The notes below the pieces were generated by a model. It was not told where the DNA came from. It ran no database searches and saw only the letters and a list, made by a program, of their open reading frames with translations. A program made the position numbers and the translations under genes. Positions 26,341 to 50,165 of a stretch of 64,000 bases of DNA are shown in pieces (position 1 is the first letter of the stretch; every line of letters begins with the position of its first letter). This stretch comes from Steroidobacteraceae bacterium (GTDB lineage Bacteria; Pseudomonadota; Gammaproteobacteria; Steroidobacterales; Steroidobacteraceae), in NCBI GenBank assembly GCA_035934055.1, contig DASYYF010000022.1:4877-68876 (forward strand). Direction: 5' to 3'.

Positions 26341-26826
26341 TCACGGCTGCGGGCGGTCGCATTCCGCGTAGAAGCGCTCGAGGACCGCCCGTTGGCCCGG
26401 CGCGATCTTGCGCAGGGCCGCTGCCCGCTCGAACCATGCGCCGCGGTCTGCCTCCGGGAACTGCTGCCTGCGGCCCGAGCGGGGCGGCCACTCCATATCG
26501 AAGAGGTTGCTGCGCAATGCCGCGGCGTCGCAGTTCCCCTCGACCGCCCACACGTGCAGGAGCTTGCCGCTCGGCAGGCGAAAGCTCCCGAGCGGATGCT
26601 CGGAGCCTGCCGTGGGAGCATCGAAGCCCGTCTCTTCCTCGAACTCACGGCGCGCGCACGCGAGCTCGTCCTCGCCGGCGTCGACGAGGCCTTTCGGGAC
26701 GGACCACGCACCCTCGTCCTTGCGCGCCCAATAGGGTCCGCCGGGGTGCACCAGAAACACCTGCGCGCCGAGACTGGTCCGGCGATAGAGCAAAATCCCC
26801 GCGCTCACTTGCGGCACTGGCGGCAC
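26341..26826 (-). CDS. NUDIX hydrolase
   Basis: Nudix box GLVDAGEDELACARREFEEETGF. GTG start. Confidence 0.85.
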   Translation of the reverse strand: MPPVPQVSAGILLYRRTSLGAQVFLVHPGGPYWARKDEGAWSVPKGLVDAGEDELACARREFEEETGFDAPTAGSEHPLGSFRLPSGKLLHVWAVEGNCDAAALRSNLFDMEWPPRSGRRQQFPEADRGAWFERAAALRKIAPGQRAVLERFYAECDRPQP

Positions 26827-26883
26827 CTCGCTGACCAGGGCGAGTCTGCACCTCGCCCTCCCCGGCCCGCCAACGGATTACAC

Positions 26884-26928
26884 GTGCCGGTATACGTAGC
26901 GGCGCGTATGTCGCGCCACGCGGGGCGG
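26884..26928. promoter_or_regulatory. Conserved ~45-bp intergenic element, copy 1 (divergent NUDIX / HhH-FtsH promoters)
   Basis: GTGCCGGTATACGTAGCGGCGCGTATGTCGCGCCACGCGGGGCGG. It shares blocks GTGCCGGTA, TACGTA, TAYGTCGC and CGCGGGGCG with 31226..31270 and ends 43 nt before the + strand start codon. Confidence 0.4.
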
Positions 26929-26970
26929 TTGCATGCTGCCCCGAGCCGCTGCCGCCGGGACTGAAAAGGC

Positions 26971-27864
26971 TTGAAGACGCTGCCATCCACCGCGCTCCCC
27001 CTGAACACCGAGATTGCGGCGCGGCTCGAGGAGGTTGCGCAGATCCTCGCCGGGCAGAATGCCAACCCGTATCGCCTCGCCGCGTACCGCGCGGCCGCCC
27101 GCACGCTGCGCAGCTGGCCGCAGCCCATCAGCGAGGTAGTGAATCAGGAGGGCGTGGCCGGCCTCAGGAAGCTCCCGGGCATCGGCGAGCGCCTGGCGCG
27201 GGCCGTCTACCAGCTGGTGCTGACCGGACGCCTGCCGATGCTCGAGCGGCTGCGGGGCGACAGTGATCCGGTCGAGCTGCTCGCGAGCGTACCGGGTATC
27301 GGCGCGAAGACCGCACAGCACATCCACGAGCGGCTCGGCATCGATACGCTGGAGGAGCTCGAGTGCGCCGCCCACGACGGCCGGCTCGAGCGCCTCGGCA
27401 TGGGGGCGAAGCGCCTCAGCGGTGTGCGCGATGCGCTGGCGGGACGGCTGGGGCGCGCCGGCCAGCGTCCGGCGCCCGAGCTCGGCTCGGCCCCGGACAT
27501 CGCCGAAGTGCTGGATGTCGACCGGCAATATCGCGAGGAGGCCGGCCGCGGCTCGCTGCCGCGGATCGCGCCGCGGCGCTTCAATCCGCGACACGAGGCC
27601 TGGCTCCCCGTGCTGCACGCCCGTCGCGGCGGACGCGAGTACACGGCCCTCTTCTCCAACACCGCCCGGGCGCACGAGCTCGCCCGGACCCGTGACTGGG
27701 TCGTCCTTTACTACGACGGCGCCGGAGCCGCCGAGCGCCAATGCACGGTGATCACCGCGGAGCGCGGACCGCTGCGCGGGCAGCGTATCGTCCGGGGACG
27801 CGAGGACGAATGTCTCGGGTACTACGCCCGCGCGGCCGGGCCGCCGGCGGCGTCCCCGCCCTGA
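26971..27864 (+). CDS. Helix-hairpin-helix DNA-binding protein resembling only the N-terminal (8-kDa/fingers) part of family X polymerases
   Basis: LNTEIAARLEEVAQILAGQNANPYRLAAYRAAARTL...LRKLPGIGERLA...LASVPGIGAKTA. No nucleotidyltransferase or PHP domain. TTG start. Confidence 0.65.
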   Translation: MKTLPSTALPLNTEIAARLEEVAQILAGQNANPYRLAAYRAAARTLRSWPQPISEVVNQEGVAGLRKLPGIGERLARAVYQLVLTGRLPMLERLRGDSDPVELLASVPGIGAKTAQHIHERLGIDTLEELECAAHDGRLERLGMGAKRLSGVRDALAGRLGRAGQRPAPELGSAPDIAEVLDVDRQYREEAGRGSLPRIAPRRFNPRHEAWLPVLHARRGGREYTALFSNTARAHELARTRDWVVLYYDGAGAAERQCTVITAERGPLRGQRIVRGREDECLGYYARAAGPPAASPP

Positions 27865-27885
27865 ACCGCCCGCCAGGACCATCCC

Positions 27886-29799
27886 ATGGACACCCGACAC
27901 AATTTCTCGATCTGGTACTTCGTATTCGCGATGGTGGCGATGCTCGCGCTGCAGAGCCTGCTCTTCAACCGCCACGTGGAGACGCTGGCCTACAGCGACT
28001 TCAAGACACTGCTGCACGCCGGCAAGATCAAGGAGGTGCTGATCGGCGACGAGGCGCTCACCGGGACCGCCGACCTGCGGGGGGCCGAGACGCTGCTGCC
28101 CGCCGAAGTGGCGAAGTCCCTGCCGCACGACAACCTCGAGCAGCACGCCTTCATCACCGCCCGGGTTCCGGACAACGACCTGATCGCCGACCTCCAGGCC
28201 GCCAAGGTGCGCTTCTCCGGGCAGGTCGAGAACCGCTGGCTCACGACGCTGCTCAGCTGGGTGGCGCCGGCGCTGGTGTTCGTGCTGATCTGGGGCTTTC
28301 TCATGCGCCGCATGGGCACGGGGCAGCTCGGCAGCATGCTCGATGTCGGCAAGAGCAAGGCCAAGGTCTTCGTGCAGAAGGAGACCGGCGTGCACTTCGC
28401 GGACGTCGCCGGGATCGACGAAGCCAAGCAGGAGCTGATGGAGGTGGTCGACTTCCTGAAGAACCCGGAGCGCTACCGGCGCCTCGGCGGCCAGATCCCC
28501 AAGGGGGTGCTGATCGTCGGTGCCCCGGGGACCGGCAAGACACTGCTGGCGAAGGCCGTGGCGGGTGAGGCCGGGGTGCCCTTTCTGTCCATCAGCGGCT
28601 CGGAGTTCGTCGAGATGTTCGTCGGGGTCGGAGCCGCACGCGTGCGCGACTTGTTCGAGCAGGCGGCGAAGCTCGCCCCCTGCATCATCTTCATCGACGA
28701 GCTGGATGCGCTCGGCAAGGCGCGCGCAATCAGCGGGCTCGCCGGAAACGACGAGCGCGAGCAGACGCTCAACCAGCTGCTGGTGCAGCTGGACGGCTTC
28801 GATACGCGCAGCGGCGTCATCATCATGGCCGCGACCAATCGCCCGGAGATCCTCGATCCCGCGCTGCTGCGTCCCGGACGCTTCGATCGTCACGTCGCTC
28901 TCGACCGGCCGGACATCAACGGTCGCGAGCAGATCCTGCGCGTGCACGCCAGGCGTCTGGTGCTCGGCGGCGACGTGGACCTGAAGGCGGTGGCGGGCAA
29001 GACCGCCGGTCTCGCCGGCGCAGACCTCGCCAATATCGTCAACGAGGCCGCGCTGCACGCCGCACGCACCAACAAATCGGTGGTCGACATGAGCGACTTC
29101 GACGAGGCCATCGATCGCGCCCTCACGGGTCTGGAAAAGAAGAGCCGGGTGATGACGGCGAAGGAGCGCGAGACGGTCGCCTACCACGAGGCGGGTCACG
29201 CCCTGGTCGCCGAGTCGCGTGCGACCGCGGACAAGGTCGCCAAGGTATCGATCATTCCGCGCGGCATCGGAGCGCTCGGCTATACGCAGCAGCAGCCCAC
29301 GGAGGACCGCTACCTCCTGAAGCACGGCGAGCTCCTCGAGAGGCTCGACGTGCTGCTCGGCGGCCGCGCCGCCGAGCAGCTCGTCTTCCATGAGCTCTCG
29401 ACGGGTGCGCAGAACGACCTGCAGCGTGCCACGGACATGGCGCGCCAGATGGTCACGCGCTATGGCATGAGCGAAGCGCTCGGCCCGGCGACCTTCGAGG
29501 CCGCTCGTCCGGCGCTGTTCCTGCCGGAAACTCTGCCCGCCGCCCGTCCCGAGTACAGCGAGCGCACCGCCGAGCTCATCGATGCGGAGATACGCGAGCT
29601 TCTCGCGGCTGCGCTCGAGCGCGTGCGCGTGACCCTGAGCGCGCGCCGCCGGGAGCTCGAGGCGCTCGCGCAGGAGCTGCTGCGCCACGAGACCGTGGAC
29701 CGCGCCACGCTGACGGCCATCCTGGCAGCGCCCGGCGCGCCGGCGCCGGCAGCGCAGCGCACCGGGGAGGCGCGCCCCGAGGTGAGCTCCGCGGCCTGA
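27886..29799 (+). CDS. ftsH: ATP-dependent zinc metalloprotease FtsH
   Basis: Walker [31 protein letters not shown] region and Zn motif HEAGHAL. Two N-terminal TM segments. Confidence 0.95.
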
Positions 29800-29814
29800 C
29801 GGCGCCGCCGCGCA

Positions 29815-31200
29815 TCACAGCGCGTACTGCTGATGCAGAAGCGGCATCTCCACCGCCGTCCCGGGCAAGCGTGCGCTGAGGCTCTGCATCGTTTCCGGCT
29901 CGCCGTGCACCAGGAAGGTACGCGCGGCGCGGGTTGCTCCGTGCCAGCGCAGCAGCTCCGCCTGATCGGCGTGGGCCGAGAAGCCGTTGATCGTATGAAT
30001 GCGCGCCTGCACCGGGACCTCCTCGCCGAAGAGGCCGACGCTCCCGGCTCCATCGATGATGCGGCGCGCCAGAGTGCCGCGTGCTGCGAAGCCCACGAAG
30101 ATCACGGCACAGTTGTGGCGCCCGAGGTTGTGCCGCAGATGGTGGCGCACCCGGCCGCCGCCGCACATGCCCGATCCGGCGATGATGATTGCGCCGCCGA
30201 CGATTCGGTTGAGTGCGACCGACTCGGACGTCTCCCGGGTGAAATGCAGCCCCGGCAGGGCGAAGGGATCGCGACCCGCGCGGAACAGCTCGCGGGTCTC
30301 GGGCTGATAGCACTCCGGGTAGCGCGCGAATATCTCGGTGGCGGAGATCGCCATCGGCGAATCGAGGAAGACCTGCATCGTCTGCGGCAGACGGCCGGAT
30401 TCGGCGCCGGCACGCAGATAAAACAGCAGCTCCTGCGCCCGCTCCAGGGCGAAGCTCGGGATGACGACATTGCCGCCGCGCCCCAACGCCGCGGCGATGG
30501 CCTGGTAGAGCTCCTCGACCGAGGGGCCGATCGGCTTGTGCAGACGGTCGCCGTAAGTGCTCTCCATCACCACGGCGTCGGCCTGCGGCGGCGGCGCGGC
30601 GGTGCGCAGCAGCGGCCGGCCGATGTTGCCGAGATCGCCGGAAAACAGCACCCGGCGCCGCGCTCCGCCTTCCGCGAGATCGAGCAGGACGCTGGCCGAC
30701 CCGAGGATGTGGCCGGCGTCGAGAAAGGTCGCCGATATGCCGGGTGCCAGCGGCATCGGCGTGCCGTAGTGCGCCGTCAGGCCGACGAAATCCATCGTGT
30801 GCAGCGCATCGACGATGGTGTAGAGGGGTGCCGGCGTTCCCGGTGCGCCTTTGTGGGCCGTGTGCCGCGCGCGCCGCAGCGCCTCCTCCTCGTGCACGTG
30901 CGCCGCATCCAGCAGCACCAGGCGCAGCAGCTCGCGCGAAGCGCCCGTGGTCACGATCTCGCCGCGGAAACCGCGCTTCGCGAGGAGCGGCAGGCGCCCA
31001 CAGTGATCGAGATGGGCGTGCGTCAGCAACACGAAGTCGATGCCGCCGGGCTCGAAGCCGAAGGGTTCCGCGTTCTCCTCGTCGAGCTCGCACCCGCCCT
31101 GGTACAGGCCGCAATCGATGAGCACCCGCTTGCCGCCGCACTCGATGAGATGGCAGGAACCGGTGACGCCGCGGTCGGCCCCATGGAACTCGATCTTCAT
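29815..31200 (-). CDS. MBL-fold beta-CASP hydrolase (RNase J / CPSF-like, RNA-specificity domain)
   Basis: MKIEFHGADRGVTGSCHLIE...VLLTHAHLDHCGRLPLL...ESTYGDR...GFSAHADQAELL. This is only the last 461 codons of the 1613-aa track ORF. Confidence 0.85.
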   Translation of the reverse strand: MKIEFHGADRGVTGSCHLIECGGKRVLIDCGLYQGGCELDEENAEPFGFEPGGIDFVLLTHAHLDHCGRLPLLAKRGFRGEIVTTGASRELLRLVLLDAAHVHEEEALRRARHTAHKGAPGTPAPLYTIVDALHTMDFVGLTAHYGTPMPLAPGISATFLDAGHILGSASVLLDLAEGGARRRVLFSGDLGNIGRPLLRTAAPPPQADAVVMESTYGDRLHKPIGPSVEELYQAIAAALGRGGNVVIPSFALERAQELLFYLRAGAESGRLPQTMQVFLDSPMAISATEIFARYPECYQPETRELFRAGRDPFALPGLHFTRETSESVALNRIVGGAIIIAGSGMCGGGRVRHHLRHNLGRHNCAVIFVGFAARGTLARRIIDGAGSVGLFGEEVPVQARIHTINGFSAHADQAELLRWHGATRAARTFLVHGEPETMQSLSARLPGTAVEMPLLHQQYAL

Positions 31201-31225: not shown

Positions 31226-31270
31226 GTGCCGGTACTACGTACAACTGCGGCTACGTCGCTCGCGGGGCGC
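31226..31270. promoter_or_regulatory. Conserved ~45-bp intergenic element, copy 2 (divergent MBL-RNase / 6-gene operon promoters)
   Basis: GTGCCGGTACTACGTACAACTGCGGCTACGTCGCTCGCGGGGCGC. It ends 42 nt before the + strand start codon at 31312. Confidence 0.4.
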
Positions 31271-31311: not shown

Positions 31312-32391
31312 ATGAGTGCAGTCGAATCCGGTGTCCGCGATCCGCGGCCGATCGGGTCCATGGATGAGGTGATTGCTGCCAAGGTCGCCTTTCTGTCCGA
31401 TCCGGCCTCCTATCCAGACCACCCGCCGCGGGTCGAGCGGCGGGAAACGCATTTCGCGTGGGTGTTTCTCGCCGGCAGCCGCGCTTACAAGCTGAAGAAG
31501 CCCTCGCACCTGCGCGGCGCGGACTGGCGCACCACGGAGGCACGCGAGCTCGCCTGCCGCGAGGAGCTGCGGCTCAACTGCCGGCTGTCGGCCCCTACCT
31601 ATCTCGGCGTCGAGCCGCTCATCGAGACAGCCGCGGGCTTCAGGATCGGCGGTGACGGCCGCGCCGTCGACTGGCTGCTGGTGATGCGACGCCTGGACGA
31701 GCGGCGCATGCTCGACTCGGTGATCGCCGCGGGCGAGCTGCACGCCGGCGATCTCGACGTCGTGCTCGGGTTCCTGGTCGATTTCTACAGGTCGCGCGAC
31801 CCGCTGCCCTTCGCACCGGATACCTACCTGGGGCGCGTCAGGTCGCGCATGGACGAGGCCCTGACCGCACTGCAGAGACCCGAGCTCGGATTGCCGGCCG
31901 AGCGGATCGCACCGCTGGCGGGCGAGCTGAGCGGCGCCTTCGAGTTGCTGCGGCCCGAGCTCGCAGAGCGCGCGAGCGGGCACCGTATCGCCGAGGTGCA
32001 CGGGGATCTGCGCGCGGAGCACGTGTGGCTCGGGCCTCCCGTGCAGGTCATCGATGCGCTCGAGGTATACGCCGACCTGCGGATGCTCGACACGGCGGAG
32101 GAGATCGCCATGCTGGCGCTCGATTGTGAGCGCCCCGCGACCTCCTGGGCGCCCGAGTATTTGCGGGACCACTACCGCGACCTGGCGCGAGACCCCTGCA
32201 GCAACCGGCTGTTCGAGTTCTACATGGCGCTGCGCGCCGCCACCCACGCCAAGCTCGCGATCTGGCATCTCGACGATCCGCAGCAGTTCCCCGACCCGGC
32301 ACCCTGGCGCGCCCGCGCGCTCAGGGCCGCAGCCACGGCGCTGCGCCACTGCCGGGCCGCCGTGCCGGCGAGCCTCACCCGCTCGGCCTAG
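31312..32391 (+). CDS. Aminoglycoside-phosphotransferase-like (protein-kinase-fold) protein, stand-alone
   Basis: ETHFAWVFLAGSRAYKLKKP...CREELRLNCRLSAPTYLGVEPL...VHGDLRAEHVW. Paralogous to the N-terminal half of 47766..49334. Confidence 0.6.
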   Translation: MSAVESGVRDPRPIGSMDEVIAAKVAFLSDPASYPDHPPRVERRETHFAWVFLAGSRAYKLKKPSHLRGADWRTTEARELACREELRLNCRLSAPTYLGVEPLIETAAGFRIGGDGRAVDWLLVMRRLDERRMLDSVIAAGELHAGDLDVVLGFLVDFYRSRDPLPFAPDTYLGRVRSRMDEALTALQRPELGLPAERIAPLAGELSGAFELLRPELAERASGHRIAEVHGDLRAEHVWLGPPVQVIDALEVYADLRMLDTAEEIAMLALDCERPATSWAPEYLRDHYRDLARDPCSNRLFEFYMALRAATHAKLAIWHLDDPQQFPDPAPWRARALRAAATALRHCRAAVPASLTRSA

Positions 32392-32403: not shown

Positions 32404-33420
32404 ATGCGCGCGATTCCCGAACCGTGCCTGTTCGCCCTGAGCGAGTCGCGCGACCTCGCCCTGAGCATCGCCGCGAGCGCCGGACTCGCCCTGGCGGCTC
32501 TCGAGGAGCGCCGCTTCGAGAGCGGCGAATTCAAGCTCCGCCCGCTCGAGTCGGTGCGCGACCGGACGGCGCTCGTCGTCGAGTCCCTCGCCGGCGACCC
32601 GGCGGTGCCGACGAGCGAGCGGCTGGTCCGTCTGCTGTTCCTGCTGTCCGGCTTGAGGGATGCCGGGGCGCTGCGCCGGACCGCGCTCGTGCCCTACCTG
32701 GCTTTCGCGCGCAAAGAGCGCCGTACCCAGCTGCGCGATCCGGTCAACACGCGCTACGTGGCGCAGCTGCTCGAGGCGGCAGGCCTCGACCGGCTCATGG
32801 CGCTCGACGTGCACAACCCGGCGGCCCTCGACAACGCCTTCCGTATTCCGGTCGATCACCTGAGCGCCATGCCGATGATGGTCGACCATTTTGCCCGGCG
32901 GCTCGGGGCGGCCCCGCTCACGGTCGTCTCGCCGGACGTCGGCGGCATCAAACGAGCGCAGCTGTTTTGCGAGCTGCTGCAGCGGCGGCTCGACCGCGAG
33001 GTGGAGATGGCGTTCATCGAGAAGCGCCGGGCACTGGATGTGGTCTCGAGCGGAGTGCTGGTGGGCGATGTCTCGCATCGGGACGTGATCGTCATCGACG
33101 ATCTGTGCGCCTCGGGCGGCACGCTGACGCGCGCGGCAGACTCGTGCCGGCGCGCGGGAGCACAGGCCGTGCATGCCGCGGCGACGCACGCGCCTCTGCC
33201 CGCCGGCCTCGCGGCCCTGCTGGCCGCGGGGACTCTCGAGAGCGTCGTGGTCACCGACAGCGTCGGACCAGGCCCCGCCGCCGCGCGCGCCTCCGCCGGC
33301 GGCTCGTCGCTCACGGTGCTGGCCGTCGGCCCGCTCTTCGGCCAGGCATTGCGGCGGATGGTGGACGGCAAGCCGCTCGCACCGCTCCTCGAGCGCTGGC
33401 CGGTCTCGCCGGCCGACTGA
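32404..33420 (+). CDS. Ribose-phosphate diphosphokinase (PRPP synthetase) family protein
   Basis: Full-length Prs pattern: RRFESGEFKLRPLESVRD...ALVPYLAFARKERR...DVHNPAALDNAFRIPVDHL...VVSPDVGGIKRA...VIVIDDLCASGGTL...VVVTDSV. Confidence 0.8.
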   Translation: MRAIPEPCLFALSESRDLALSIAASAGLALAALEERRFESGEFKLRPLESVRDRTALVVESLAGDPAVPTSERLVRLLFLLSGLRDAGALRRTALVPYLAFARKERRTQLRDPVNTRYVAQLLEAAGLDRLMALDVHNPAALDNAFRIPVDHLSAMPMMVDHFARRLGAAPLTVVSPDVGGIKRAQLFCELLQRRLDREVEMAFIEKRRALDVVSSGVLVGDVSHRDVIVIDDLCASGGTLTRAADSCRRAGAQAVHAAATHAPLPAGLAALLAAGTLESVVVTDSVGPGPAAARASAGGSSLTVLAVGPLFGQALRRMVDGKPLAPLLERWPVSPAD

Positions 33421-33432: not shown

Positions 33433-34473
33433 ATGGCTGCGAGCTATCTCATCACCGGAGGCGCCGGCTTTCTCGGCATCAACCTCTGCCGCTACCTGCT
33501 GGCCTGCGGCGAGCGGGTGCGTTCGCTCGACATCGCACCCTTTCAGTATCCGGATCGCCCACGGGTCGAGGTCATCGATGGCGACGTGCGTGACCCGGCC
33601 GCCGTCGAGCGCGCCGTGAGCGGCATCGACGTCGTGGTGCATGCCGCCGCGGCACTGCCGCTCGCCCCACCCGAGGAGATCGTCTCGACCGCCGTCCAGG
33701 GCACCCGGTTGCTGCTGCAGGCTGCCGCGGCCCACGGCGTGCGGCGCTTCATCTTCATCTCCTCCACCGCCGTCTACGGCATCCCTGACCATCATCCGCT
33801 GCTCGAGAGCGACCGGCTGCAAGGGGTCGGACCCTACGGCGAATCCAAGATCCGGGCGGAAGCACTGTGCGTCCACGCCCGCGAGGGGGGCCTGTGCGTC
33901 AGCATTCTGCGGCCGAAGAGCTTCGTCGGGCCGGAGCGCCTCGGCGCCTTCGAGCTGCTCTACAGCTGGGCCTGTGCGGGAAGAAATTTTCCGGTGCTGG
34001 GCGCGGGCAACAACCGCTACCAGCTGCTCGACGTCGAGGACCTGTGCCGCGCTATCGAGCTGTGCGCGAGTGCGGGCCCGGAGCAGGCCAACGACACTTT
34101 CAACGTGGGCGCGGCGGATTTCGGCACCATGCGCGAGAACTTCCAGGCGGTGCTCGATCGCGCCGGGCACGGCGCGCACGTCGTGGCGCTGCCCGCCAGA
34201 CCCGCGATCCTGCTGCTGCGGCTGGCGGAAGCGCTGCGCCTCTCGCCGCTGTACCGCTGGATCTACGCAACCGCATCGCAGGAGAGCTTCGTCTCGGTCG
34301 CGAAGATCGAGAGCCGCCTGGGATTCCGCCCGCGCTATTCGAATCGCGAGGCCCTGATCCGCAACTACGACTGGTACGTGGCGCATCGGCAGGAGCTCGG
34401 CACGCTGACCGGCACCACGCACCGCGTGCCATGGAAGAAGGGAGTGCTCCGCCTTGTCGAACATCTCTTCTGA
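33433..34473 (+). CDS. NAD-dependent epimerase/dehydratase (extended SDR)
   Basis: ITGGAGFLGINL Rossmann motif and catalytic PYGESKIRAE (YxxxK). Confidence 0.85.
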   Translation: MAASYLITGGAGFLGINLCRYLLACGERVRSLDIAPFQYPDRPRVEVIDGDVRDPAAVERAVSGIDVVVHAAAALPLAPPEEIVSTAVQGTRLLLQAAAAHGVRRFIFISSTAVYGIPDHHPLLESDRLQGVGPYGESKIRAEALCVHAREGGLCVSILRPKSFVGPERLGAFELLYSWACAGRNFPVLGAGNNRYQLLDVEDLCRAIELCASAGPEQANDTFNVGAADFGTMRENFQAVLDRAGHGAHVVALPARPAILLLRLAEALRLSPLYRWIYATASQESFVSVAKIESRLGFRPRYSNREALIRNYDWYVAHRQELGTLTGTTHRVPWKKGVLRLVEHLF

Positions 34474-41046: not shown

Positions 41047-41223
41047 GCATCGGACTTCGGCTTCCGCCCGCGCAAGGCGGCTTTTCCGGCCGAGCATGCC
41101 TGGTCGCGGCGCGCCGCGGGCGAGTGGCCGCCATCGATTCCCGAGGCCGATCGTCACGAATACGATCAGGCGGCCATCAGGCACTGGCTGGAGGTGTTCA
41201 TCACCCTGAAGGGCCGCCGCCGC

Positions 41224-42994: not shown

Positions 42995-43010
42995 GAATAC
43001 GGGAAAGTGC
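42995..43010 (-). promoter_or_regulatory. Shared promoter-proximal motif GAATACGSGAAAGTGC, copy 2
   Basis: The + strand reads GAATACGGGAAAGTGC, 15 of 16 identical to 41031..41046. It lies 43 nt upstream of the PolX ATG (42951) and about 105 nt upstream of nrdJ (43115). Confidence 0.45.
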
Positions 43011-43114
43011 CTAGCCCGCGCCGACCGTGGCGAGATCCGCGCGCGCCGCTAGGTAGTCGTGCGGATGCCCCTGGCGCGCCCGGCCGGCAGGCTTGCGGGA
43101 GGATCGTTCCGCAG

Positions 43115-44962
43115 ATGGCGCAGTTACCCATGTCCGCCGCGACCGAAGAGACTCTGCCGCAGTTCATGTGGCGGACGCGCTACCGGGATAGCGAAGCGTC
43201 CCCGCCCGAAGCCGATCTCGGTGCCACCTGGCGGCGGGTTGCCGCGAGCGTCGCCGCGATCGAGCGCGAGCCGCAACTCTGGCGCGAGCGCTTCCTCGGC
43301 ATCCTCAGGAACTACCGCTTCCTGCCGGGAGGCCGGATCCTCGCAGGCGCCGGTACGCAGCATCAGGTGACGCTGTGCAACTGCTTCGTCATGGGCCTCA
43401 TCGACGACTCGGTGGAAGGCATCTTCGAGGCGCTCAAGGAGGGAGCGCTCACGATGCAGCAGGGAGGCGGTATCGGCTACGACTTCTCGACACTGCGGCC
43501 GCGGGGGGCGCGTGCACACACCAGCGGCACGATCGCCTCGGGACCCGTGTCGTTCATGCGGGTGTGGGATGCCATGTGCGCGACCGTGCTTTCGACCGGC
43601 GCGCGCCGCGGCGCCATGATGGCGACCCTGCGCTGCGACCACCCGGATATCGAGGAGTTCGTCGCGGCCAAGCGCGAGCCCGAGGCACTGCCGCGCTTCA
43701 ATCTCTCGGTGCTCGTCACCGATCCCTTCATGGAGGCGGTGAGGCGCGACGATGAGTGGCCGCTCGTATTCCCCGAGCGCGAGCTCCAGGGCGAGGCGCC
43801 GGCCGGGACCCTCGAGCGCAGCTGGAGCGGCAGCGCCGTGCCGGTGGCGTGCCGGATCCACAGGGTGATCCGCGCGCGCGAGCTGTGGAGGCGGCTCTGC
43901 GACAGCGCCTACGACTGCGCCGAGCCCGGCGTGCTCTTCATCGATCGCATCAATGCCGAGAACAACCTCGGCTACTGCGAAACGCTGAGCGCCACGAACC
44001 CGTGCGCCGAGGAGCCGCTGCCCTCCTTCGGCGCCTGCAATCTCGGCTCGCTCAATCTGACCGCCTTCGTGCTCGATCCGTTCACGCCGCGCGCCCGCCT
44101 CGATCAGGGCTCGCTGCGCGAGGTGGCCCGCCTCGCGGTCAGGTTTCTCGACAACGTCATCGAGATCTCGCGCTTTCCGCTCGCGCGCCAGCGCGAGCAG
44201 GCGCACCGCTCGCGCCGCGTCGGACTCGGGGTGACGGGGCTCGCCGATGCGCTCGCGATGCTCGGTCTGCGCTACGACAGCGAGGCGGCACGCAGCGCGG
44301 CCGCCGACACCATGAAGGTGGTGCGCGACGCGGCCTACGAGGCCTCGGTCGGGCTGGCGGGCGAGCGCGGCGCGTTCCCCGCCTTCGACGCCGGACAGTA
44401 CCTCGAGCGGCCGTTCATCCGCAGACTGCCGCCGCACCTCAAGGAGGCGATCCGGCGTCAGGGGATCCGCAACAGCCACCTGCTGGCGATCGCACCGGCC
44501 GGCAGCATCAGCCTCCTGGCCGGCAATCTGAGCAGCGGCATCGAGCCGATCTTCGGGCGCGAGACCGCACGGCGCGTGCTCGACAGCGACGGCCGGCGGC
44601 GCGATTTCCTCCTCACCGATTACGCCTACGCCGCCTGGCGGGCGCGCGGTGCAAGCGGCGGCGCCGCGCCGCCGGATGCGTTCCTCGACTGGCGCTCGCT
44701 CAGCGCCCGCGATCATCTTCTCATGCAGGCCGCGCTGCAGCCCTGCGTGGACGGCGCCATCTCCAAGACCGTGATGCTGCCGCACGCGCTGCCGCCTGCG
44801 AGCGTGATGGAGATCTTCCAGAGCGCCTACGAGCTCGGGCTCAAGGGCTGTACGGTATTCCGCGAAGGTACGCGCCGTGCGATCGTCGCCGGCACCGCGG
44901 CGGCCGCGCCGCCGCCGGTCGAGGGAGCGCACTGCCACGACATCGAGCGCGAGTGCGACTGA
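43115..44962 (+). CDS. nrdJ: Class II (adenosylcobalamin-dependent) ribonucleotide reductase
   Basis: RFLPGGRILAGAGT...CNCFV...MQQGGGIGYDFSTLRPRGA...GARRGAMMATL...ATNPCAEEPLPSFGACNLGSLNL. Confidence 0.9.
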   Translation: MAQLPMSAATEETLPQFMWRTRYRDSEASPPEADLGATWRRVAASVAAIEREPQLWRERFLGILRNYRFLPGGRILAGAGTQHQVTLCNCFVMGLIDDSVEGIFEALKEGALTMQQGGGIGYDFSTLRPRGARAHTSGTIASGPVSFMRVWDAMCATVLSTGARRGAMMATLRCDHPDIEEFVAAKREPEALPRFNLSVLVTDPFMEAVRRDDEWPLVFPERELQGEAPAGTLERSWSGSAVPVACRIHRVIRARELWRRLCDSAYDCAEPGVLFIDRINAENNLGYCETLSATNPCAEEPLPSFGACNLGSLNLTAFVLDPFTPRARLDQGSLREVARLAVRFLDNVIEISRFPLARQREQAHRSRRVGLGVTGLADALAMLGLRYDSEAARSAAADTMKVVRDAAYEASVGLAGERGAFPAFDAGQYLERPFIRRLPPHLKEAIRRQGIRNSHLLAIAPAGSISLLAGNLSSGIEPIFGRETARRVLDSDGRRRDFLLTDYAYAAWRARGASGGAAPPDAFLDWRSLSARDHLLMQAALQPCVDGAISKTVMLPHALPPASVMEIFQSAYELGLKGCTVFREGTRRAIVAGTAAAAPPPVEGAHCHDIERECD

Positions 44963-44988: not shown

Positions 44989-46350
44989 CTACGGCTCGCG
45001 CGCCTGAGCGGCGTCCAGGCTCCCGGCGAGCGCGCGCAGCGCGTCCGAGATCGAGACCGGATAGCTTCGCCGTACGTCGCCCAGATCGCGCAGCGCCGGC
45101 GGGAGCGAGTCGAGCTCGGCACGGCTGTATTCGCGCACGCGACCGAGCGGTGGGAGCGGCGCGAGCGGCGCGCCGTCGCGCACCACCTCCTCGAGCAGCG
45201 GCCGCCCCGCGGCGCCCTCCTCGAGGCGCACCACGCGGTCGCCCAGGTACTGCCCCGCGGGGTCGCGTTCGCGGTACACCTGCTTGGCGCCCGGCCAGGT
45301 CGCCTTGCCGGGCGAGCTCTTGCGCCGTGGCCGCCCCGCGTACTCCTGGAGCTTGTAGGCCATGTCGAGCGCCGGCGCATCGGCTGACACGTCGAGCGCG
45401 GTCCCGACGCCGAAGGCATCCGCCGGCACTCCGGCCGACAGCAGCTCCCCGATCTGATGCTCATCGAGGCCGCCGCTCAGAACGATCTGGATGTCGCCAA
45501 GCCCGTGCGCATCGAGCGCCGCACGGGCACGCCGCGCCTGTGCCGCCAGATCGCCGCTGTCGATACGCACCGCACGGATCCCGCCCCCCGGCGCCGCGCG
45601 CGCCCTGAGCTCCCCGGCGAGGCCGATGACGCGCTGCAGCGCACGATCCGTATCGTAGGTATCCACCAGCAGCGTCGTGGGCTCGCGGCGGCTGCGCACG
45701 AAGTTGCGGAAGGCAGCCTGTTCGCTGTCGTGCGCCTCGATGAAGGAGTGCGCCATGGTGCCCGACAGCGGGATGCCGAAGCGCTGACCGGCAGCGACCG
45801 TGGCGGTCGCGTCGAAGCCTGCGAGGAAGGCGGCGCGCGCCGCAAAGAGTCCCGCGTCCGCCTCGTGCGCACGGCGCATGCCGAAGTCGACCAGCTGCCG
45901 GCCGCGCGCCGCGATCACGCAGCGCGCCGCCTTGCTGGCGATGGTGGTCTGGAAATGCACGATGTTGAGCAGACGGCTCTCGAGCAGCTGCGCCTCGAGT
46001 ATCGGAGCCGTCACGCTGAGGATCGGCTCGTCGGCGAAGAACGGCGTCCCTTCCGGCATCGCGTGCAGCGCCCCCGTGAAGCGCACCGTGCCGAGGTGGT
46101 CGAGGAAGGGCGCCGAGAACTTACCGAGGCTCGAGAGATAGGCGAGGTCCTCGTCCGTGAAGCGCAGCTGCCCGAGGTAATCGACCGCCTGCTCGAGACC
46201 GCCCGCCACCAGGAACTGCCGCGATTTAGGCAGCCGGCGCACGAAGAGCTCGAAGACCGCCGTCTCCGTCATGTCCGACTCGAAGTACGCCTGCGCCATC
46301 GCCAGCTGATAGAAGTCCGTGAGCAGCGCATTGGGAGAAGGATTCTTCAT
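44989..46350 (-). CDS. pncB: Nicotinate phosphoribosyltransferase
   Basis: LLTDFYQLAMAQAYFESDMTETAVFELFVRRLP...GTMAHSFIEAH...VRIDSGDL. Confidence 0.9.
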   Translation of the reverse strand: MKNPSPNALLTDFYQLAMAQAYFESDMTETAVFELFVRRLPKSRQFLVAGGLEQAVDYLGQLRFTDEDLAYLSSLGKFSAPFLDHLGTVRFTGALHAMPEGTPFFADEPILSVTAPILEAQLLESRLLNIVHFQTTIASKAARCVIAARGRQLVDFGMRRAHEADAGLFAARAAFLAGFDATATVAAGQRFGIPLSGTMAHSFIEAHDSEQAAFRNFVRSRREPTTLLVDTYDTDRALQRVIGLAGELRARAAPGGGIRAVRIDSGDLAAQARRARAALDAHGLGDIQIVLSGGLDEHQIGELLSAGVPADAFGVGTALDVSADAPALDMAYKLQEYAGRPRRKSSPGKATWPGAKQVYRERDPAGQYLGDRVVRLEEGAAGRPLLEEVVRDGAPLAPLPPLGRVREYSRAELDSLPPALRDLGDVRRSYPVSISDALRALAGSLDAAQAREP

Positions 46351-46366
46351 GAGGCCGGAACCCCTG

Positions 46367-46382
46367 ATACTTGTGCGTATTC
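46367..46382 (+). promoter_or_regulatory. Variant of the shared motif (ATACTTGTGCGTATTC)
   Basis: 12 of 16 match GCACTTTCSCGTATTC in the same gene-proximal orientation, 36 nt upstream of the PRTase ATG at 46419. It lies in the divergent pncB/PRTase intergenic region. Confidence 0.35.
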
Positions 46383-46418
46383 TCGCATCGTCCCTGCCGG
46401 CGCGAGACTGTAGGGAGG

Positions 46419-47105
46419 ATGACCGTATCGCTTCGGCTGTTCGCCGATCGCCGCGCGGCCGGGCGCGAGCTCGCTCGCGCCGTCGGGCGGCTGCGCCTGT
46501 CTGCGCCGGTCGTGGTGCTCGGCCTGCCGCGCGGCGGAGTGCCGGTGGCGTTCGAAGTCGCGCGCGCGCTCCATGCGCCGCTCGACGTGATGGTGGTGCG
46601 CAAGGTCGGCATGCCGGGCCAGCCGGAGCTCGCGCTCGGCGCGATCGCCGCCGGCGCCGTCACCGTGCGCCAGCCCCTCCCGTTTCCCGGCTACGGCCCC
46701 GATGCCGAGGAGTTTGCCGCGCTCGCCGCACGCGAGCGCGGCGAGCTCGAGCGGCGCGAGCAGCTCTACCGCGCCGGCCGGGCGCCTCTCGAGCTCACGG
46801 GCAAGACGGTGGTTCTCGTCGACGACGGGCTGGCGACGGGAGCCACCATGCTCGCGGCGGTGCGCGCGGCGCGCAAAGCCGGCGCCGCAGCAGTGGTGGC
46901 GGCGGCGCCCGTGGCCTCCGGCGAGGCCGCGGCCCTGATCGGCGCCGAGTGCGATTCCGTCGCGATCGTCGAGATCCCGCCGGCGCTGCGCGCCGTCGGA
47001 GAATGGTACGAGGATTTCGGCCAGACCGAGGACCGCGAGGTGTGCGAGCTGCTGCGGGAGTCGGCACGCGTGCATGGGGGCAGTCCGGGAGCTACTGCTT
47101 CGTAG
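46419..47105 (+). CDS. Phosphoribosyltransferase-domain protein
   Basis: GGGAGG 5 nt upstream of the ATG. VVLGLPRGGVPVAFEVA...VVLVDDGLATGATMLAAV (PRPP-binding loop). Confidence 0.85.
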   Translation: MTVSLRLFADRRAAGRELARAVGRLRLSAPVVVLGLPRGGVPVAFEVARALHAPLDVMVVRKVGMPGQPELALGAIAAGAVTVRQPLPFPGYGPDAEEFAALAARERGELERREQLYRAGRAPLELTGKTVVLVDDGLATGATMLAAVRAARKAGAAAVVAAAPVASGEAAALIGAECDSVAIVEIPPALRAVGEWYEDFGQTEDREVCELLRESARVHGGSPGATAS

Positions 47106-47775
47106 CGCGGTCAAGGCGCGACATGTAGCTTGCGAGACCCGTGAGCTCCTCCATCGAGCGGCCCTCGAGGAGCCGCAGATGCACGGGCCGCATGCCCGGC
47201 CGGCGCCTTTCGATCGTGTCGTGCAGCTGCCGCAACAGGTACTCGTACTGCTGACCGGCAACTCGCGGTACGAAGCGCTCATCGTCCCCCTCGCCGCGCG
47301 CGCCGTGGCACCGGAGGCACCGGACCACGTAGAGCTCGGCGCCCTTCTCGACGCCACGCTCGGGACCCGGAGTCGTGTCCGGCGCGGGAGGGAGGCTCGC
47401 CGCGTACGCCGCGACATCGGCGATGTCCTGAGTCGAGCCCAGCACGTGGCGCCCCGCGATGCGCTCCATCGGGTCATAAGAGCGCAGCCCCGCGCGATAG
47501 TCGACGAGCTCGCGGGCGATGACCCGCCGATGCTGACCGGCGATCTGCGGCGGCCAGCCGCTCGCCTTTCCCTCGCCGCGTGGGCCGTGACACTCGGCAC
47601 AGGTGGCAAACAGGCGCGCGCCATGCGGGACATCCGGCGTGGCCTCGAGCGCCGCGCGCAGCTCCTTTCCGGCCCGTGCTTCTGCGGGTGCGGGCGCAGC
47701 GGATGCGATCGGCGTCACGATCAGGAGCACGGCGGCCGGCAGCCACGGCACGCGAGCGGACATCCCTAGATGCAT
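47092..47775 (-). CDS. Dihaem c-type cytochrome
   Basis: Two CxxCH motifs (CAECH, CLRCH). Signal peptide. Alternative start ATG 47763, just after the upstream stop. Confidence 0.8.
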   Translation of the reverse strand: MHLGMSARVPWLPAAVLLIVTPIASAAPAPAEARAGKELRAALEATPDVPHGARLFATCAECHGPRGEGKASGWPPQIAGQHRRVIARELVDYRAGLRSYDPMERIAGRHVLGSTQDIADVAAYAASLPPAPDTTPGPERGVEKGAELYVVRCLRCHGARGEGDDERFVPRVAGQQYEYLLRQLHDTIERRRPGMRPVHLRLLEGRSMEELTGLASYMSRLDRATKQ

Positions 47776-49334
47776 TCGATCTCCCTGAGGACCTGCGACA
47801 CCAGGTCCGCTCGTGCCGTGTCGGCATCGATCACGTTGAGGCGCTCCGCCGCCTCGATCGGCTCGAAGCGCGCCTGCTGCAGCGCGAGCACGCCGCGATC
47901 CGCTTCCGATGCGTCGGCCGCCGCGTGTTGGCGCGCGGCGATCCGCGCCTCGAGCACCGCGCGCGGCGCATGGCAGAAGACGACCCGGACGACAGCCCCA
48001 TGCTCCGGCCCGAGGGAGGCGAGCCGCGCGCGCTCCTCGCGCCGCTGACAGGTCGCATCGACGACCACGGACAGCCCCCCGGCGAGCGCCTCGGCGGCGC
48101 ACTGCCGCAGCCGCTGGTAGGCTGCCGCACTCATTGCCGCGGAGTACAGGCCCTGCCCGAGCGCCGAGCCGGAGCGCTGCTCGGGGGCAAGCCCGCCGAG
48201 GCGCTTGCGCTCCACATCGGAGCGCACATGGACGGCCATGAGCCTCGGCGCCAGCCGCTCGGCGAGCCAGGTCTTGCCCGAGCCCGAGAGGCCGCACATC
48301 AGAATGAGCCGCGGACGGCGCACGACGAGGAGCCCCCGCGCACAGTCGAGGTAGCGGCCGTGCTCCGCGCAGCTCGCCGCGCGGCTCTGCGGGTCTGTCG
48401 CATCGGCCTCCGCCGCGCGCAGCGCCGCCACCTTGGCGCGCACGAGGGCGCGATGCGCGCCGTAGAGATGCAGCAGCCGGCAGGCCGGGTAGTCGCCGCT
48501 CTCGAAGAGATATCCCCCGATGAAAGCCTGGGCGTGGGCATCGAAGCCGCGGGCGCGCAGATCCATGTACAGGCATCCGATCTCCTCCGCCACGTCGATC
48601 CAGCGGAAGGCCGGCTCGAACTCGATGCAGTCGAAAGCCAGCAGGCGTCCGCCGTAGCGCGCGACGTTCCCGGCGTGCAGATCCCCGTGGCATTCGCGCA
48701 CCCGGCCGGCTGCACGCCGGCCGGCGATCCAGGGTTCTGCGGCTTCGATGCGTGCGACGTACGCCTCGGTCAGGCTCCGCACGGCCTCGGCCGCAGCGAG
48801 CGTCTCTGCCGCCTGCAGACACTCCGAGAGATTACGCAGGAGCAGCGCACGCACGGTGTCGGGGCGTCCCCACGGCTCCTCGGCGCCCGGGCGCGGCAGC
48901 GCCTCGTGCCGCCGGGCGAGCTCGCCCCCGAAGGCGGCGATCGCGGCCGGATCGAGCTCGCCGACTGCGAGCAGCGCCGCGAGCTCATCCGTCGTGCGGA
49001 ATTGCCGCATGCACACCGCATGATCGATGACCTCGCCGCGACCGTCGATCCCCGCGCGCCCGCCCCCGAAGGTGACCGGAGCCACACGCAGATAGAGCTC
49101 GGGGGCAAAGCGGCGGTTGAGCCGCAGCTCCTCGGCGCAAAAGAATGCCCTGCGCTCGGGCGAGCGCAGGTCGACGAAGGTGAAATGGACGGGCTTCTTG
49201 ATCTTGTAGGCGAATTCGCCCGTCAGGAGCACCCAGGAGATGTGGGTCTCGATCAGCCGTACTTCCCGCACCGGGTGCGGGTACGCTGCGGGCTGCAGCA
49301 GCGACTGCAACCGGACCGGCAGACTGGTACTCAT
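47766..49334 (-). CDS. Bifunctional APH-like kinase-fold / P-loop (AAA_33-type) ATP-binding protein
   Basis: ETHISWVLLTGEFAYKIKKP...CAEELRLNRRFAPELYLRVAPV...CHGDLHAGNV, then the Walker A LILMCGLSGSGKTWLAERL. ATG 49334. Confidence 0.8.
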   Translation of the reverse strand: MSTSLPVRLQSLLQPAAYPHPVREVRLIETHISWVLLTGEFAYKIKKPVHFTFVDLRSPERRAFFCAEELRLNRRFAPELYLRVAPVTFGGGRAGIDGRGEVIDHAVCMRQFRTTDELAALLAVGELDPAAIAAFGGELARRHEALPRPGAEEPWGRPDTVRALLLRNLSECLQAAETLAAAEAVRSLTEAYVARIEAAEPWIAGRRAAGRVRECHGDLHAGNVARYGGRLLAFDCIEFEPAFRWIDVAEEIGCLYMDLRARGFDAHAQAFIGGYLFESGDYPACRLLHLYGAHRALVRAKVAALRAAEADATDPQSRAASCAEHGRYLDCARGLLVVRRPRLILMCGLSGSGKTWLAERLAPRLMAVHVRSDVERKRLGGLAPEQRSGSALGQGLYSAAMSAAAYQRLRQCAAEALAGGLSVVVDATCQRREERARLASLGPEHGAVVRVVFCHAPRAVLEARIAARQHAAADASEADRGVLALQQARFEPIEAAERLNVIDADTARADLVSQVLREIECI

Positions 49335-49377
49335 GGAAAGAAGCATGCGCCCGTGGCCGAGGTCTGCGCGCATCGCG

Positions 49378-49392
49378 ATAAGTGCGTATGGC
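49378..49392 (+). promoter_or_regulatory. GATAAGTGCGTATGG element upstream of the cytochrome c gene
   Basis: It shares GATA and the 8-mer GTGCGTAT with 46366..46382. The TAT lies 35 nt upstream of the ATG at 49425 (37 nt in the PRTase copy). Confidence 0.3.
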
Positions 49393-49424
49393 GCCCGCTC
49401 TGGCGCCCTGCGAGGGGTTGCAGG

Positions 49425-49835
49425 ATGATGCTCAGCGGAGGTTCCCCGATGCTGGCCAGGCAGCTTCCGCTGCGTATCGCGGCGCTGGCGCTCGCAGCCG
49501 TCGTGCTGTGCGCGCTGTGCACTCCGCGTACGTCCGCCGCCGGCGTACCCAACACGCCGCAGCTCGCCCACGGTGAGCACATCGCCCGCCTGGTCTGCTC
49601 CGCCTGCCATGTGGTCGCGGCCGACCAGGAGTACCCGCCGCTCCTCGACAAGGCTGCGCCCGGCTTCGCCGAGATCGCCAATCGCCCGGGCGTCACCTCC
49701 GCGAGCCTGCGGCGCTTCATCACCTCGACTCACTGGGACGTCGACAAGCTGCCGATGTCCATGCCGAACCCGATGCTCACCAAGGCGGAAGCGCAGGACG
49801 TAGCACGCTACATACTCAGCCTGCGCAATCGCTGA
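49425..49835 (+). CDS. Monohaem c-type cytochrome
   Basis: CSACH haem motif. Signal/TM LRIAALALAAVVLCALC. Distal Met region KLPMSMPNPML. Confidence 0.75.
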   Translation: MMLSGGSPMLARQLPLRIAALALAAVVLCALCTPRTSAAGVPNTPQLAHGEHIARLVCSACHVVAADQEYPPLLDKAAPGFAEIANRPGVTSASLRRFITSTHWDVDKLPMSMPNPMLTKAEAQDVARYILSLRNR

Positions 49836-49838
49836 AGT

Positions 49839-50045
49839 TCAAGGCGTCTTGAACTTCTGAAAACGCAGCACCTCGCACACCGCCCCGCAGTCACACTCGA
49901 CGGCGACCGTCCCCGGCATCTGCAGGATATCCTCCCCCCGGCCGGCAAAGAGGTCCTCGCAGACCGCGAGCAGCCGCGAGCAGGCACAAGGTGCACCGTA
50001 GTACCATGTGTCGGGTTTCGGGTCGCGAACCGGAGTAACCGTCAT
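49839..50045 (-). CDS. Small Cys-rich hypothetical protein (68 aa)
   Basis: MTVTPVRDPKPDTWYYGAPCACSRLLAVCEDLF...VAVECDCGAVCEV. Seven Cys, including CAC and CDC pairs. No homology recognised. It could start at 50105. Confidence 0.3.
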   Translation of the reverse strand: MTVTPVRDPKPDTWYYGAPCACSRLLAVCEDLFAGRGEDILQMPGTVAVECDCGAVCEVLRFQKFKTP

Positions 50046-50165
50046 GCATCCGTATCGTGCACTCGCACCGGGACGAGCGCAGTTCGTGGCAATGCGGGAG
50101 GACATCGGGGATATCCGCGATGGGTGTTACGGCTTTCCCTCATCAGGGAGCGCACTTCCGGTGCC

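Follow-up and report, generated by a model that had tools for sequence, protein, structure and literature searches.

A shared 18-bp inverted repeat marks a putative low-oxygen stress gene cluster in a Steroidobacteraceae genome

The stretch between positions 26341 and 49835 of a 64-kb window (the whole stretch of DNA analysed), which belongs to an uncultured soil gammaproteobacterium of the Steroidobacteraceae, shows about 22 genes and several copies of an 18-bp inverted repeat predicted to be an operator (Table 1). The source is a metagenome-assembled genome of 3.57 Mb, coded G000; its contigs have C-numbers, and the genomes or loci of the relatives compared have G- and L-numbers. Reading frames were picked by third-position G+C content (GC3), the window having about 70% G+C, and genes were annotated by Pfam and NCBIfam profile matches, none of which were found for 31312-32391, 35383-37119, 38137-39090 and 39917-40564. 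Every family listed in a preliminary description of this DNA lies in the stretch: a NUDIX hydrolase, a helix-hairpin-helix (HhH) protein, FtsH, an RNase, APH-like kinases, a ribosome hibernation factor (HPF), DNA polymerase X (PolX), a ribonucleotide reductase (RNR), the nicotinate phosphoribosyltransferase PncB and a stand-alone phosphoribosyltransferase (PRTase). Two of the three c-type cytochrome genes placed there by that description are also inside, and the third is located outside, at about 60.0-60.5 kb. About 8 kb, around a third of the stretch, was missing from it and contains the genes encoding a PRPP-synthetase (Prs) paralogue, an epimerase, a UbiA/DPPR-synthase-like protein, a lipoprotein, an FGE-like protein, a secreted protein, a transmembrane (TM) protein and a DUF6763 protein.

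The repeat was first spotted by side-by-side inspection of the intergenic DNA of the island and then refined. Its consensus is ATACGCAC-AA-GTGCGTAT, with a 7-2-7 layout (TACGCAC-NN-GTGCGTA). A first 22-mer position weight matrix (PWM) made from eight sites was too noisy, and a symmetric 18-mer PWM, scored in bits, took its place. The preliminary description had pointed to the island promoters as the place to scan for a motif, and the repeat is indeed present at each promoter-bearing intergenic region. These regions, mostly divergent, serve around 12 transcription units and show one or two copies each, usually about 35-90 nt ahead of the start codon. Two copies are weak: the half-site between pncB and the PRTase gene, and the second copy between the PolX and RNR genes. 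Eight of the nine intergenic matches of at least 9 bits in the window fall within 26.3-49.8 kb, and the string GAATACG...AAGT has only three occurrences in the 3.57-Mb genome, all of them in the island.

Matches of at least 13 bits number 61 in the whole genome. In the whole-genome scan, the top untrained matches outside the window sit 30-95 nt ahead of genes. These targets include the cbb3 oxidase gene ccoN (TIGR00780, 777 bits against a cut-off of 583), an Hsp20-hemN operon (TIGR00538, 520 bits against 325) next to a gene for a BON-domain protein, another Hsp20 operon (small protein-Hsp20), two tandem universal stress protein (USP) genes, one of them divergent from the phosphoketolase gene, norC-norB, nsrR-nirK-nirV (nirK is above the TIGR02376 cut-off), and the genes for the phosphoketolase, a HiPIP, a stand-alone receiver (REC) protein and PhaB. 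The 37-kb region C45:53-91 kb, which is 1% of the genome, holds five of the 21 best untrained matches, for which our binomial estimate is about 2e-6. This second operator-marked island (C45:53000-91000) contains genes for three tandem USPs, phosphoketolase, HemN, Hsp20, a BON protein, a HiPIP, acetoin-dehydrogenase E1, Pta, PhaB, a nitroreductase, cytochrome bd, a CBS protein and glucan phosphorylase, and it also encodes a FixJ-like regulator with two kinases; ahead of the nitroreductase, cytochrome bd and CBS protein genes, weak operator sites or none were found. As the preliminary description stated, the window has no USP or alpha-crystallin gene: the three tandem USPs and the two Hsp20 of this genome are encoded on other contigs.

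The operator is also present in relatives. In G004, with about 87% amino acid identity, it is located before the DUF6763 gene and between the PolX and RNR genes; in G024, between the PolX and Prs genes and before the APH-like gene; in G017, at an orthologous island promoter; and in G035, which belongs to another family, between the PRTase and HPF genes, before the HPF gene and before the PolX gene. The compact island of L054 shows six operator sites, and further sites are found in L049-L055. Outside the island, the operator lies 68-74 nt before the Hsp20 genes of G004, G041 and G042 (the last with two genes), 119 nt before that of G035 and 73 nt before ccoN in G004. As far as these relatives go, such conservation at orthologous promoters is the phylogenetic footprint expected of a real operator. 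Because the operator occurs at the island promoters and at hallmark genes elsewhere, and is conserved at orthologous promoters, co-regulation is supported in silico, and the island genes would behave as one regulon. The coordinated module proposed for this region in the preliminary description is backed to that extent.

Table 1. Predicted operators and genes of the operator-marked stretch and of the adjoining sensor genes; PWM scores are in bits.
Feature	Position	Strand	Evidence or remarks
NUDIX hydrolase	26341-26826	-	PF00293, E 2e-13; leftmost gene with an operator, GGT to its left without one
Operator ATACGTAGCGGCGCGTAT, NUDIX/HhH divergent promoter	26892-26909		PWM 19.5; orthologous site in L054, 18.8
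HhH protein resembling the PolX N-terminus	26971-27864	+	HHH_8/HHH_5
FtsH paralogue	27886-29799	+	Peptidase_M41 and AAA; TIGR01241, 777 bits against a cut-off of 600
Beta-CASP metallo-beta-lactamase RNase	29815-31200	-	Beta-Casp, RMMBL, Lactamase_B
Operator CTACGTACAACTGCGGCT, RNase/APH-like divergent promoter	31235-31252		PWM 15.5; near-identical sites in G024 and G017 and in the orthologous promoter of L054
APH-like kinase-fold protein	31312-32391	+	35% identity to the N-terminal half of the fused kinase 47766-49334, E 1e-30
PRPP-synthetase (Prs) paralogue	32404-33420	+	TIGR01251, 203 bits against a cut-off of 113
Envelope block: epimerase, UbiA/DPPR-synthase-like transferase, lipoprotein, FGE-like	33433-38222	+	Pfam, NCBIfam; same operon as the APH-like and Prs genes
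Secreted protein, family unassigned	38137-39090	-	Signal peptide
Operator, reverse strand ATTCGTGCAAGTACTTAC, 80 nt before the HPF gene	39252-39269		PWM 15.1
HPF: S30AE fused to a cold-shock domain	39349-39897	+	PF02482, PF00313
TM protein	39917-40564	-	Paired with the DUF6763 gene
DUF6763 protein	40579-40980	-	PF20549
Operator ATACGCGAAAGTGCGCAT, 53 nt before the DUF6763 gene	41033-41050		PWM 21.7; kept in G004, L054 and L050
DNA polymerase X (PolX) with PHP domain	41224-42951	-	NF006375, 468 bits against a cut-off of 426
Two operators, PolX/RNR divergent promoter	42997-43014 and 43049-43066		PWM 18.3 and 14.4; orthologous sites in G004, L054 and L053
Class II RNR, NrdJ/NrdZ-type, spare paralogue	43115-44962	+	TIGR02504, 545 bits against a cut-off of 400; NPCAE and GACNLG motifs present
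Nicotinate phosphoribosyltransferase PncB	44989-46350	-	NF006696, 589 bits against a cut-off of 503
Weak operator or half-site (GTGCGTAT), PncB/PRTase divergent promoter	46363-46380		PWM 10.5; has GAATACGCACAAGT like the strong sites
Stand-alone type I PRTase	46419-47105	+	PF00156
Dihaem cytochrome c	47092-47775	-	Pfam; two CxxCH motifs
Fused kinase: APH-like N-terminal half and AAA_33 P-loop C-terminal half, 522 aa	47766-49334	-	Homologues carry PF01636 and PF13671
Operator ATCGCGATAAGTGCGTAT, kinase/cytochrome c divergent promoter	49372-49389		PWM 16.1; orthologous site in L054, 17.5
Monohaem cytochrome c, right end of the operator-marked stretch	49425-49835	+	PF00034, CSACH motif
FixL-type haem-PAS hybrid histidine kinase HK1, candidate oxygen sensor	50124-51746	+	PAS aligns to the FixL haem domain
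CheB-CheR-PAS-GAF-GAF-HisKA_3 kinase (1452 aa) and NarL-type regulator	51928-56967	+	Domain matches

The FtsH, Prs and NrdJ genes of the island are spare copies, each paralogous to a housekeeping gene: the island FtsH shows 46% identity to the housekeeping FtsH encoded on C37, and the island NrdJ/Z is only 44% identical to the product of the housekeeping nrdJ on C20. The latter gene (C20:7924-10932) matches in three separated pieces within one open frame of 1096 aa, as it does in several relatives, and probably carries an intein. The pncB gene of the island is the only copy in the genome (single tblastn match). Among NCBIfam models, the beta-CASP RNase matches that of the type VII CRISPR Cas14 best, at 363 bits, far under the cut-off of 800; this is shared ancestry only, and no CRISPR features were encountered near 29815-31200. 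At the position of the HPF fused to a cold-shock domain (HPF-CSD), L128 has a short HPF of 114 aa.

The left flank of the island contains genes for an amidase, a phosphoesterase, an OMP and a GGT, and the right flank shows a sensor block followed by genes for a WYL regulator and an aldolase; neither flank is related to the island. Besides the kinases and regulator in Table 1, the sensor block contains a second FixL-like hybrid kinase gene (58323-59978). A gene encoding an archaeal-type S-adenosylmethionine synthetase (MAT; 57019-58209, PF01941, E 4e-144) sits between the NarL-type regulator gene and this kinase gene, and homologues of it are found near PolX/RNR genes in L057 and L084. A mobile genomic island is not indicated: no tRNA gene was found in the window, no integrase was encountered among the genes annotated in or beside the stretch, where no search aimed at integrases was made, and the G+C content of the stretch (0.70-0.73) is only slightly raised, by about 1-3%, over the 0.69 of the genome.

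The gene order varies among relatives. L054 (SMAG_U12228) shows an island of about 20 kb with the order USP, cytochrome c, kinase, second cytochrome c, PRTase, PncB, RNR, PolX, DUF6763, TM protein, HPF, Prs, APH-like protein and RNase, with the NUDIX gene slightly past the RNase gene. G004 has the same genes as this compact island in a rearranged order. In L128, a contig of 1.5 Mb, the same locus contains the backbone only (GGT, NUDIX, HhH, HPF, second cytochrome c, kinase, cytochrome c, aldolase and WYL), without the island inserts and without the whole 50-60 kb sensor block. The region 49425-60500 (cytochrome c, FixL-like kinase, 1452-aa kinase, NarL, MAT, FixL-like kinase and cytochrome c) is missing there, and the cytochrome c gene abuts the aldolase and WYL genes; this region looks like a lineage-specific insertion with duplicated ends. 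G017 and G024 show modules of two to four genes on separate contigs. The unit suggested in the preliminary description is present as such in only one or two relatives, and elsewhere it is split into modules of two to four genes, so that its criterion of synteny in related genomes receives a mixed answer. The fused kinase gene was rejected as a synteny anchor, none of the other island genes being within 20-40 kb of it in six same-genus genomes; the PolX and RNR genes are better anchors.

Some smaller groups recur. The DUF6763 and TM protein genes stay beside the PolX gene in G004, L054 and L050, and the APH-like/Prs pair is found in G017, G024, L054, L109, L111 and L127. The epimerase and UbiA genes of the envelope block are also present in G004; these two apart, the island stretches retrieved for L054 and the other relatives yielded no homologue of the envelope block. 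Because Prs is paired only with the APH-like gene in those six genomes or loci, this comparison places Prs in the core toolkit and marks the envelope genes as added locally. Among 80 PolX loci from many phyla, inspected for 10 kb on each side, the commonest neighbour is a PRTase gene (16 loci), followed by those encoding PncB (14), HPF (13), a CBS protein (13), NrdJ/Z (11), an APH-like protein (8) and the fused APH/P-loop kinase (7); Hsp20, BON and USP genes also occur. As counted in these loci, the recurrence is far above chance. The recurring neighbourhoods are mostly outside the Steroidobacteraceae: Nitrosomonadaceae, Nitrosovibrio, Methylotenera, Rhodocyclaceae, Phenylobacterium, alphaproteobacterial metagenome-assembled genomes, Acidithiobacillales and Nitrospirota.

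The candidate regulator is encoded in the second island. The gene at C45:75132-75758 encodes a FixJ-like protein with Response_reg and GerE domains (REC-GerE), and it adjoins the genes for a sensor-less HisKA kinase and a FixL-like hybrid kinase (C45:73588-75105). Its orthologues show 93% identity in G004, 92% in G041, 89% in G042, 76-77% in G017 and G044, and 58-59% in G035, G039 and G043. In G004 and G041, at 92-93% identity, the regulator and the operator occur together. In G035 and G039 the gene has a tandem USP gene as its neighbour; in L049 it adjoins FtsH-PolX. G044 has a 21.8-bit operator 70 nt before the response-regulator gene, and upstream of the kinase-regulator operon a block containing one good half-site is conserved among G000, G004 and G041. 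The kinase encoded at C45:73588-75105 and that at 58323-59978 are paralogues of HK1. Residues 32-155 of HK1 align to the FixL haem-PAS structures 1DP6 (from B. japonicum) and 2CMN, with an E-value of 4e-14, and the His of RKPHADY in HK1 aligns with the proximal His of RSRHDSY. In both hybrid kinases of the window and in the C45 paralogue the PAS domain aligns to the FixL haem domain and this proximal His is kept; HK1 is therefore a candidate, predicted haem-PAS oxygen sensor. The FixJ sites described in the literature are imperfect palindromes of 18 bp, and GTAMGTAG, the sequence obtained by SELEX (PMC4999443), is compatible with the operator found here. From these comparisons, the island is probably run by the FixJ-type regulator rather than by the adjacent NarL-type one. 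The decamer GTAGTACCAT, loosely like the second FixJ SELEX class GTAGTTTCCC, has only two copies in the 3.57-Mb genome, at 49998 and 51882, which lie 126 nt before the HK1 gene and 46 nt before the 1452-aa kinase gene.

We propose, with a probability of about 0.68, that the region 26.3-49.8 kb is the macromolecule-maintenance arm of a low-oxygen and nitric-oxide (NO) stress regulon under FixJ-like control. The gene families, the operator and its distribution and conservation are observed; that oxygen or NO is the signal, that the FixJ-like protein is the regulator and that it activates and does not repress are inferred. A drop in oxygen, or perhaps NO, would be sensed by the FixL-type haem-PAS hybrid kinases, which would pass phosphate to the FixJ-like REC-GerE regulator, and a dimer of the phosphorylated regulator would bind the 18-bp repeats and turn the island on. 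The genes of C45:53-91 kb (USPs, Hsp20, BON, hemN, phosphoketolase and HiPIP), the cbb3 oxidase, norCB and nsrR-nirK would be induced simultaneously. The centres of most repeats lie 45-90 nt ahead of the start codon, a location compatible with activation by a regulator bound over the -35 element. The roles of the products in non-growing cells were deduced from their protein families: the Prs paralogue would supply phosphoribosyl pyrophosphate (PRPP), PncB and the PRTase would serve NAD and nucleotide salvage, the NrdJ/Z paralogue would give oxygen-independent dNDPs, and the NUDIX hydrolase would sanitize the pools. PolX and the HhH protein may act in gap repair, HPF-CSD in ribosome hibernation, the beta-CASP RNase in RNA turnover, the FtsH paralogue in proteolysis and the cytochromes c in electron transfer.

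Several observations weigh against this proposal. The main inconsistency is G024, which has motif-like sites and no close FixJ-like orthologue, in a genome that is 88% complete. No operator of at least 12 bits was found before the kinase-regulator operon in G000 or G004, only the half-site block. We chose the seed sites of the PWM by eye and imposed its symmetry, which inflates the scores of the training sites. Most same-genus genomes lack PolX (21 of the 24 searched) and the fused kinase, and because of this the island is, on present comparisons, an accessory and accretive cluster and not a fixed unit. The envelope operon (epimerase, UbiA, lipoprotein and FGE-like) has no evident dormancy role. 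With some operator sites merely 15-40 nt from the start codon, repression is as compatible as activation, and the strongest site of the genome (23.5 bits) is located 70 nt before nsrR-nirK, where it would also fit an Rrf2 repressor.

The repeat could accordingly be read as the operator of the Rrf2-family NsrR-like repressor encoded at C81:19107-19553, with the island derepressed by NO and not activated by oxygen limitation. The site before nsrR-nirK is a classic autoregulated arrangement, norCB has a site too, and some sites are near enough to start codons to overlap core promoters. This explanation is nevertheless unlikely: the motif seems unlike the 11-1-11 NsrR consensus, the protein is under the NsrR equivalog cut-off (134 bits against 182), the targets ccoN, hemN, USPs and Hsp20 are typical of oxygen regulons, and nsrR is linked to nirK only, whereas the FixJ-like gene is in or beside regulon clusters in several genomes.

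The preliminary description took the adjoining kinase and NarL-type regulator (51928-56967) as a DosS/DosR analogue controlling the island. Adjacency favours the pair, and the order GAF-GAF-HisKA_3-HATPase at the end of the 1452-aa kinase is that of DosS/DosT; the regulator is about as close to NarL (1A04) as to DevR (3C3W), with E-values of about 1e-26 to 1e-27, and a 7-2-7 operator could be bound by any GerE-type dimer. However, no repeat of at least 9 bits precedes the kinase, NarL or MAT genes in the 64-kb window, and the whole block is absent from the L128 locus. For the NarL-type regulator, no orthologue turned up in the two closest relatives having both island and operator, G004 (best match 38%) and G041 (none at 1e-30), nor in G035 or G039. 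The likeness of the kinase to DosS/DosT was rejected, as its ATPase domain alone matches and its GAF region shows no match to the DosS/DosT GAF structures. Control by this pair is distinctly improbable, and both genes are probably outside the regulon though adjacent to it, by the operator and orthologue searches.

Still less can be said for a Crp/Fnr-family protein with shifted specificity, which would make the region a diverged regulon of the Anr/lxa type. Two HTH_Crp_2 proteins are encoded in the genome (C38:97300 and C72:63561), a 10-bp half-site spacing suits a Crp-type dimer too, and Fnr/Anr governs similar targets (ccoN, hemN and USPs) in other proteobacteria, the lxa motif being Anr-like (PMC3721108). 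Yet the operator differs completely from TTGAT-N4-ATCAA, and neither gene is linked to regulon members. The window scan for FNR/Anr boxes gave two-mismatch matches only, mostly intragenic and none at island intergenic regions; canonical FNR boxes do occur in the genome, at other promoters than the operator-bearing ones, the perfect boxes being at unrelated loci. We regard this possibility as very unlikely. A chance or historical juxtaposition of accessory genes, with the repeat as a generic promoter or REP-like element, would suit the great variation of island composition among relatives and the off-theme envelope operon, but it is extremely improbable for a repeat that is so rare, keeps a constant distance upstream of orthologous genes across several genomes and is concentrated at stress and respiration genes.

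The FixJ-like regulon proposed here was compared with the DosR and lxa sets by family membership only, using family models and the gene lists of the papers. The Dev box of DosR is a 20-bp palindrome with a GGGAC...GTCCC core, and the operator found here differs from this consensus. The DosR/DevR blocks of Mycobacterium tuberculosis are Rv0079-81, Rv0569-74c, Rv2003c-07c and Rv2623-31, and the families common to both systems are the B12-dependent RNR (Rv0570), the PRTase (Rv0571c), the nicotinate phosphoribosyltransferase (Rv0573c), the ribosome-associated factor (Rv0079) and the Rv2004c-type kinase (PMC5309233). The overlap noted in the preliminary description, that is, block 2 (Rv0570, Rv0571c and Rv0573c) with Rv0079 and Rv2004c, agrees with this literature. 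USPs and Hsp20 are encoded elsewhere in the genome under the same operator, and a nitroreductase and a CBS protein are found in the second island. Both systems also show spare paralogues of housekeeping enzymes and a GerE-type regulator that here probably binds an inverted repeat with an AT-rich centre. In contrast, the probable sensors here are haem-PAS FixL-type hybrid kinases and not the haem-GAF kinases DosS/DosT, DosR has no counterparts of the PolX, HhH protein, FtsH paralogue, beta-CASP RNase, Prs paralogue and c-type cytochromes found here, and respiratory and denitrification genes (ccoN, norCB and nirK) join the regulon here.

The low-oxygen-activated lxa locus of Burkholderia cenocepacia (BCAM0275a-0323; PMC3721108) is likewise a supra-operonic cluster of a proteobacterium, and a single promoter motif recurs in many of its intergenic regions. 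Among its genes, the one for an ATP-dependent Zn protease (BCAM0309) adjoins that for a class II RNR (BCAM0310), and a metal-dependent RNase (BCAM0300) and cytochrome c (BCAM0284) are encoded there as well (PMC3721108); the family-level overlap with this locus, which the preliminary description named as a comparable island, agrees with that paper. The window has an FtsH-type protease, a class II RNR, an RNase and cytochrome c genes, and C45 has the USP, Hsp20 and BON genes. The content of the C45 island closely parallels the lxa list (PMC3721108, Table 4), its USPs, Hsp20, phospholipid-binding (BON) proteins, nitroreductase and polyhydroxyalkanoate/acetate genes having matches there. However, PolX, PncB, PRTase, HPF and the APH/P-loop kinase are absent from that list (PMC3721108, Table 4), the toolkit is divided here over two islands, and the lxa motif is Anr/Fnr-like (TGA-N6-TCA), with no such box at the promoters here. 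Although the overlap in gene families is real, the region belongs to neither the DosR nor the lxa type because the defining operator and sensor differ.

FixL-FixJ systems, including those with a hybrid FixL (hFixL; PMC4999443), share a haem-PAS kinase with conserved proximal His, haem binding being predicted here, a REC-GerE regulator whose gene accompanies that of the kinase, an imperfect palindrome of 18 bp as operator, with regulator binding predicted here, and control of the cbb3 oxidase and hemN, likewise predicted here. They differ in that classical FixJ acts on very few promoters (fixK and nifA) and via FixK, whereas about 25-30 apparent direct targets and no evident FixK relay are found here; moreover, the operon here has an extra sensor-less HisKA kinase, and the kinases have C-terminal receiver domains.

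Among low-oxygen and dormancy regulons, DosR of M. tuberculosis has been studied well and lxa of Burkholderia in part; for many of their members, such as Rv2004c, Rv0571c and nrdZ, we know of no function. Here, DosR and lxa families are found together with PolX, HPF, Prs, FtsH and the beta-CASP RNase under one rare, conserved operator in an environmental gammaproteobacterium. This gives a concrete predicted operator-regulator pair and a comparative handle on a joint role of orphan dormancy genes, namely the supply of PRPP, NAD and dNTPs and repair in non-growing cells, and it suggests a modular survival kit widely carried by soil bacteria and rewired to different oxygen sensors. More tentatively, and with the balance of probability somewhat against it, a FixJ-family regulator may have been co-opted to act directly, as the master switch, on around 30 promoters of a dormancy-type regulon, with no FixK/Fnr relay, and to control an ancient, horizontally shared persistence kit wired to different oxygen sensors by phylum. 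If so, the kit would consist of PolX, NrdJ/Z, PncB, PRTase, HPF, the APH/P-loop kinase and the APH-like protein paired with Prs; it would be wired to DosRST in mycobacteria, to Anr in Burkholderia and to FixLJ-like systems in Steroidobacteraceae; and non-growing cells would gain PRPP-based NAD and nucleotide salvage, oxygen-independent dNTPs and gap repair.

As a separate observation on this genome, perfect or near-perfect FNR-type boxes (TTGAT-N4-ATCAA) are paired around 60 bp apart at six loci: C38:11992/12053, C38:50784/50844, C5:49855/49915, C11:12352/12413, C37:55868/55928 and C42:27041/27101. These pairs look like a repeated two-box promoter module.

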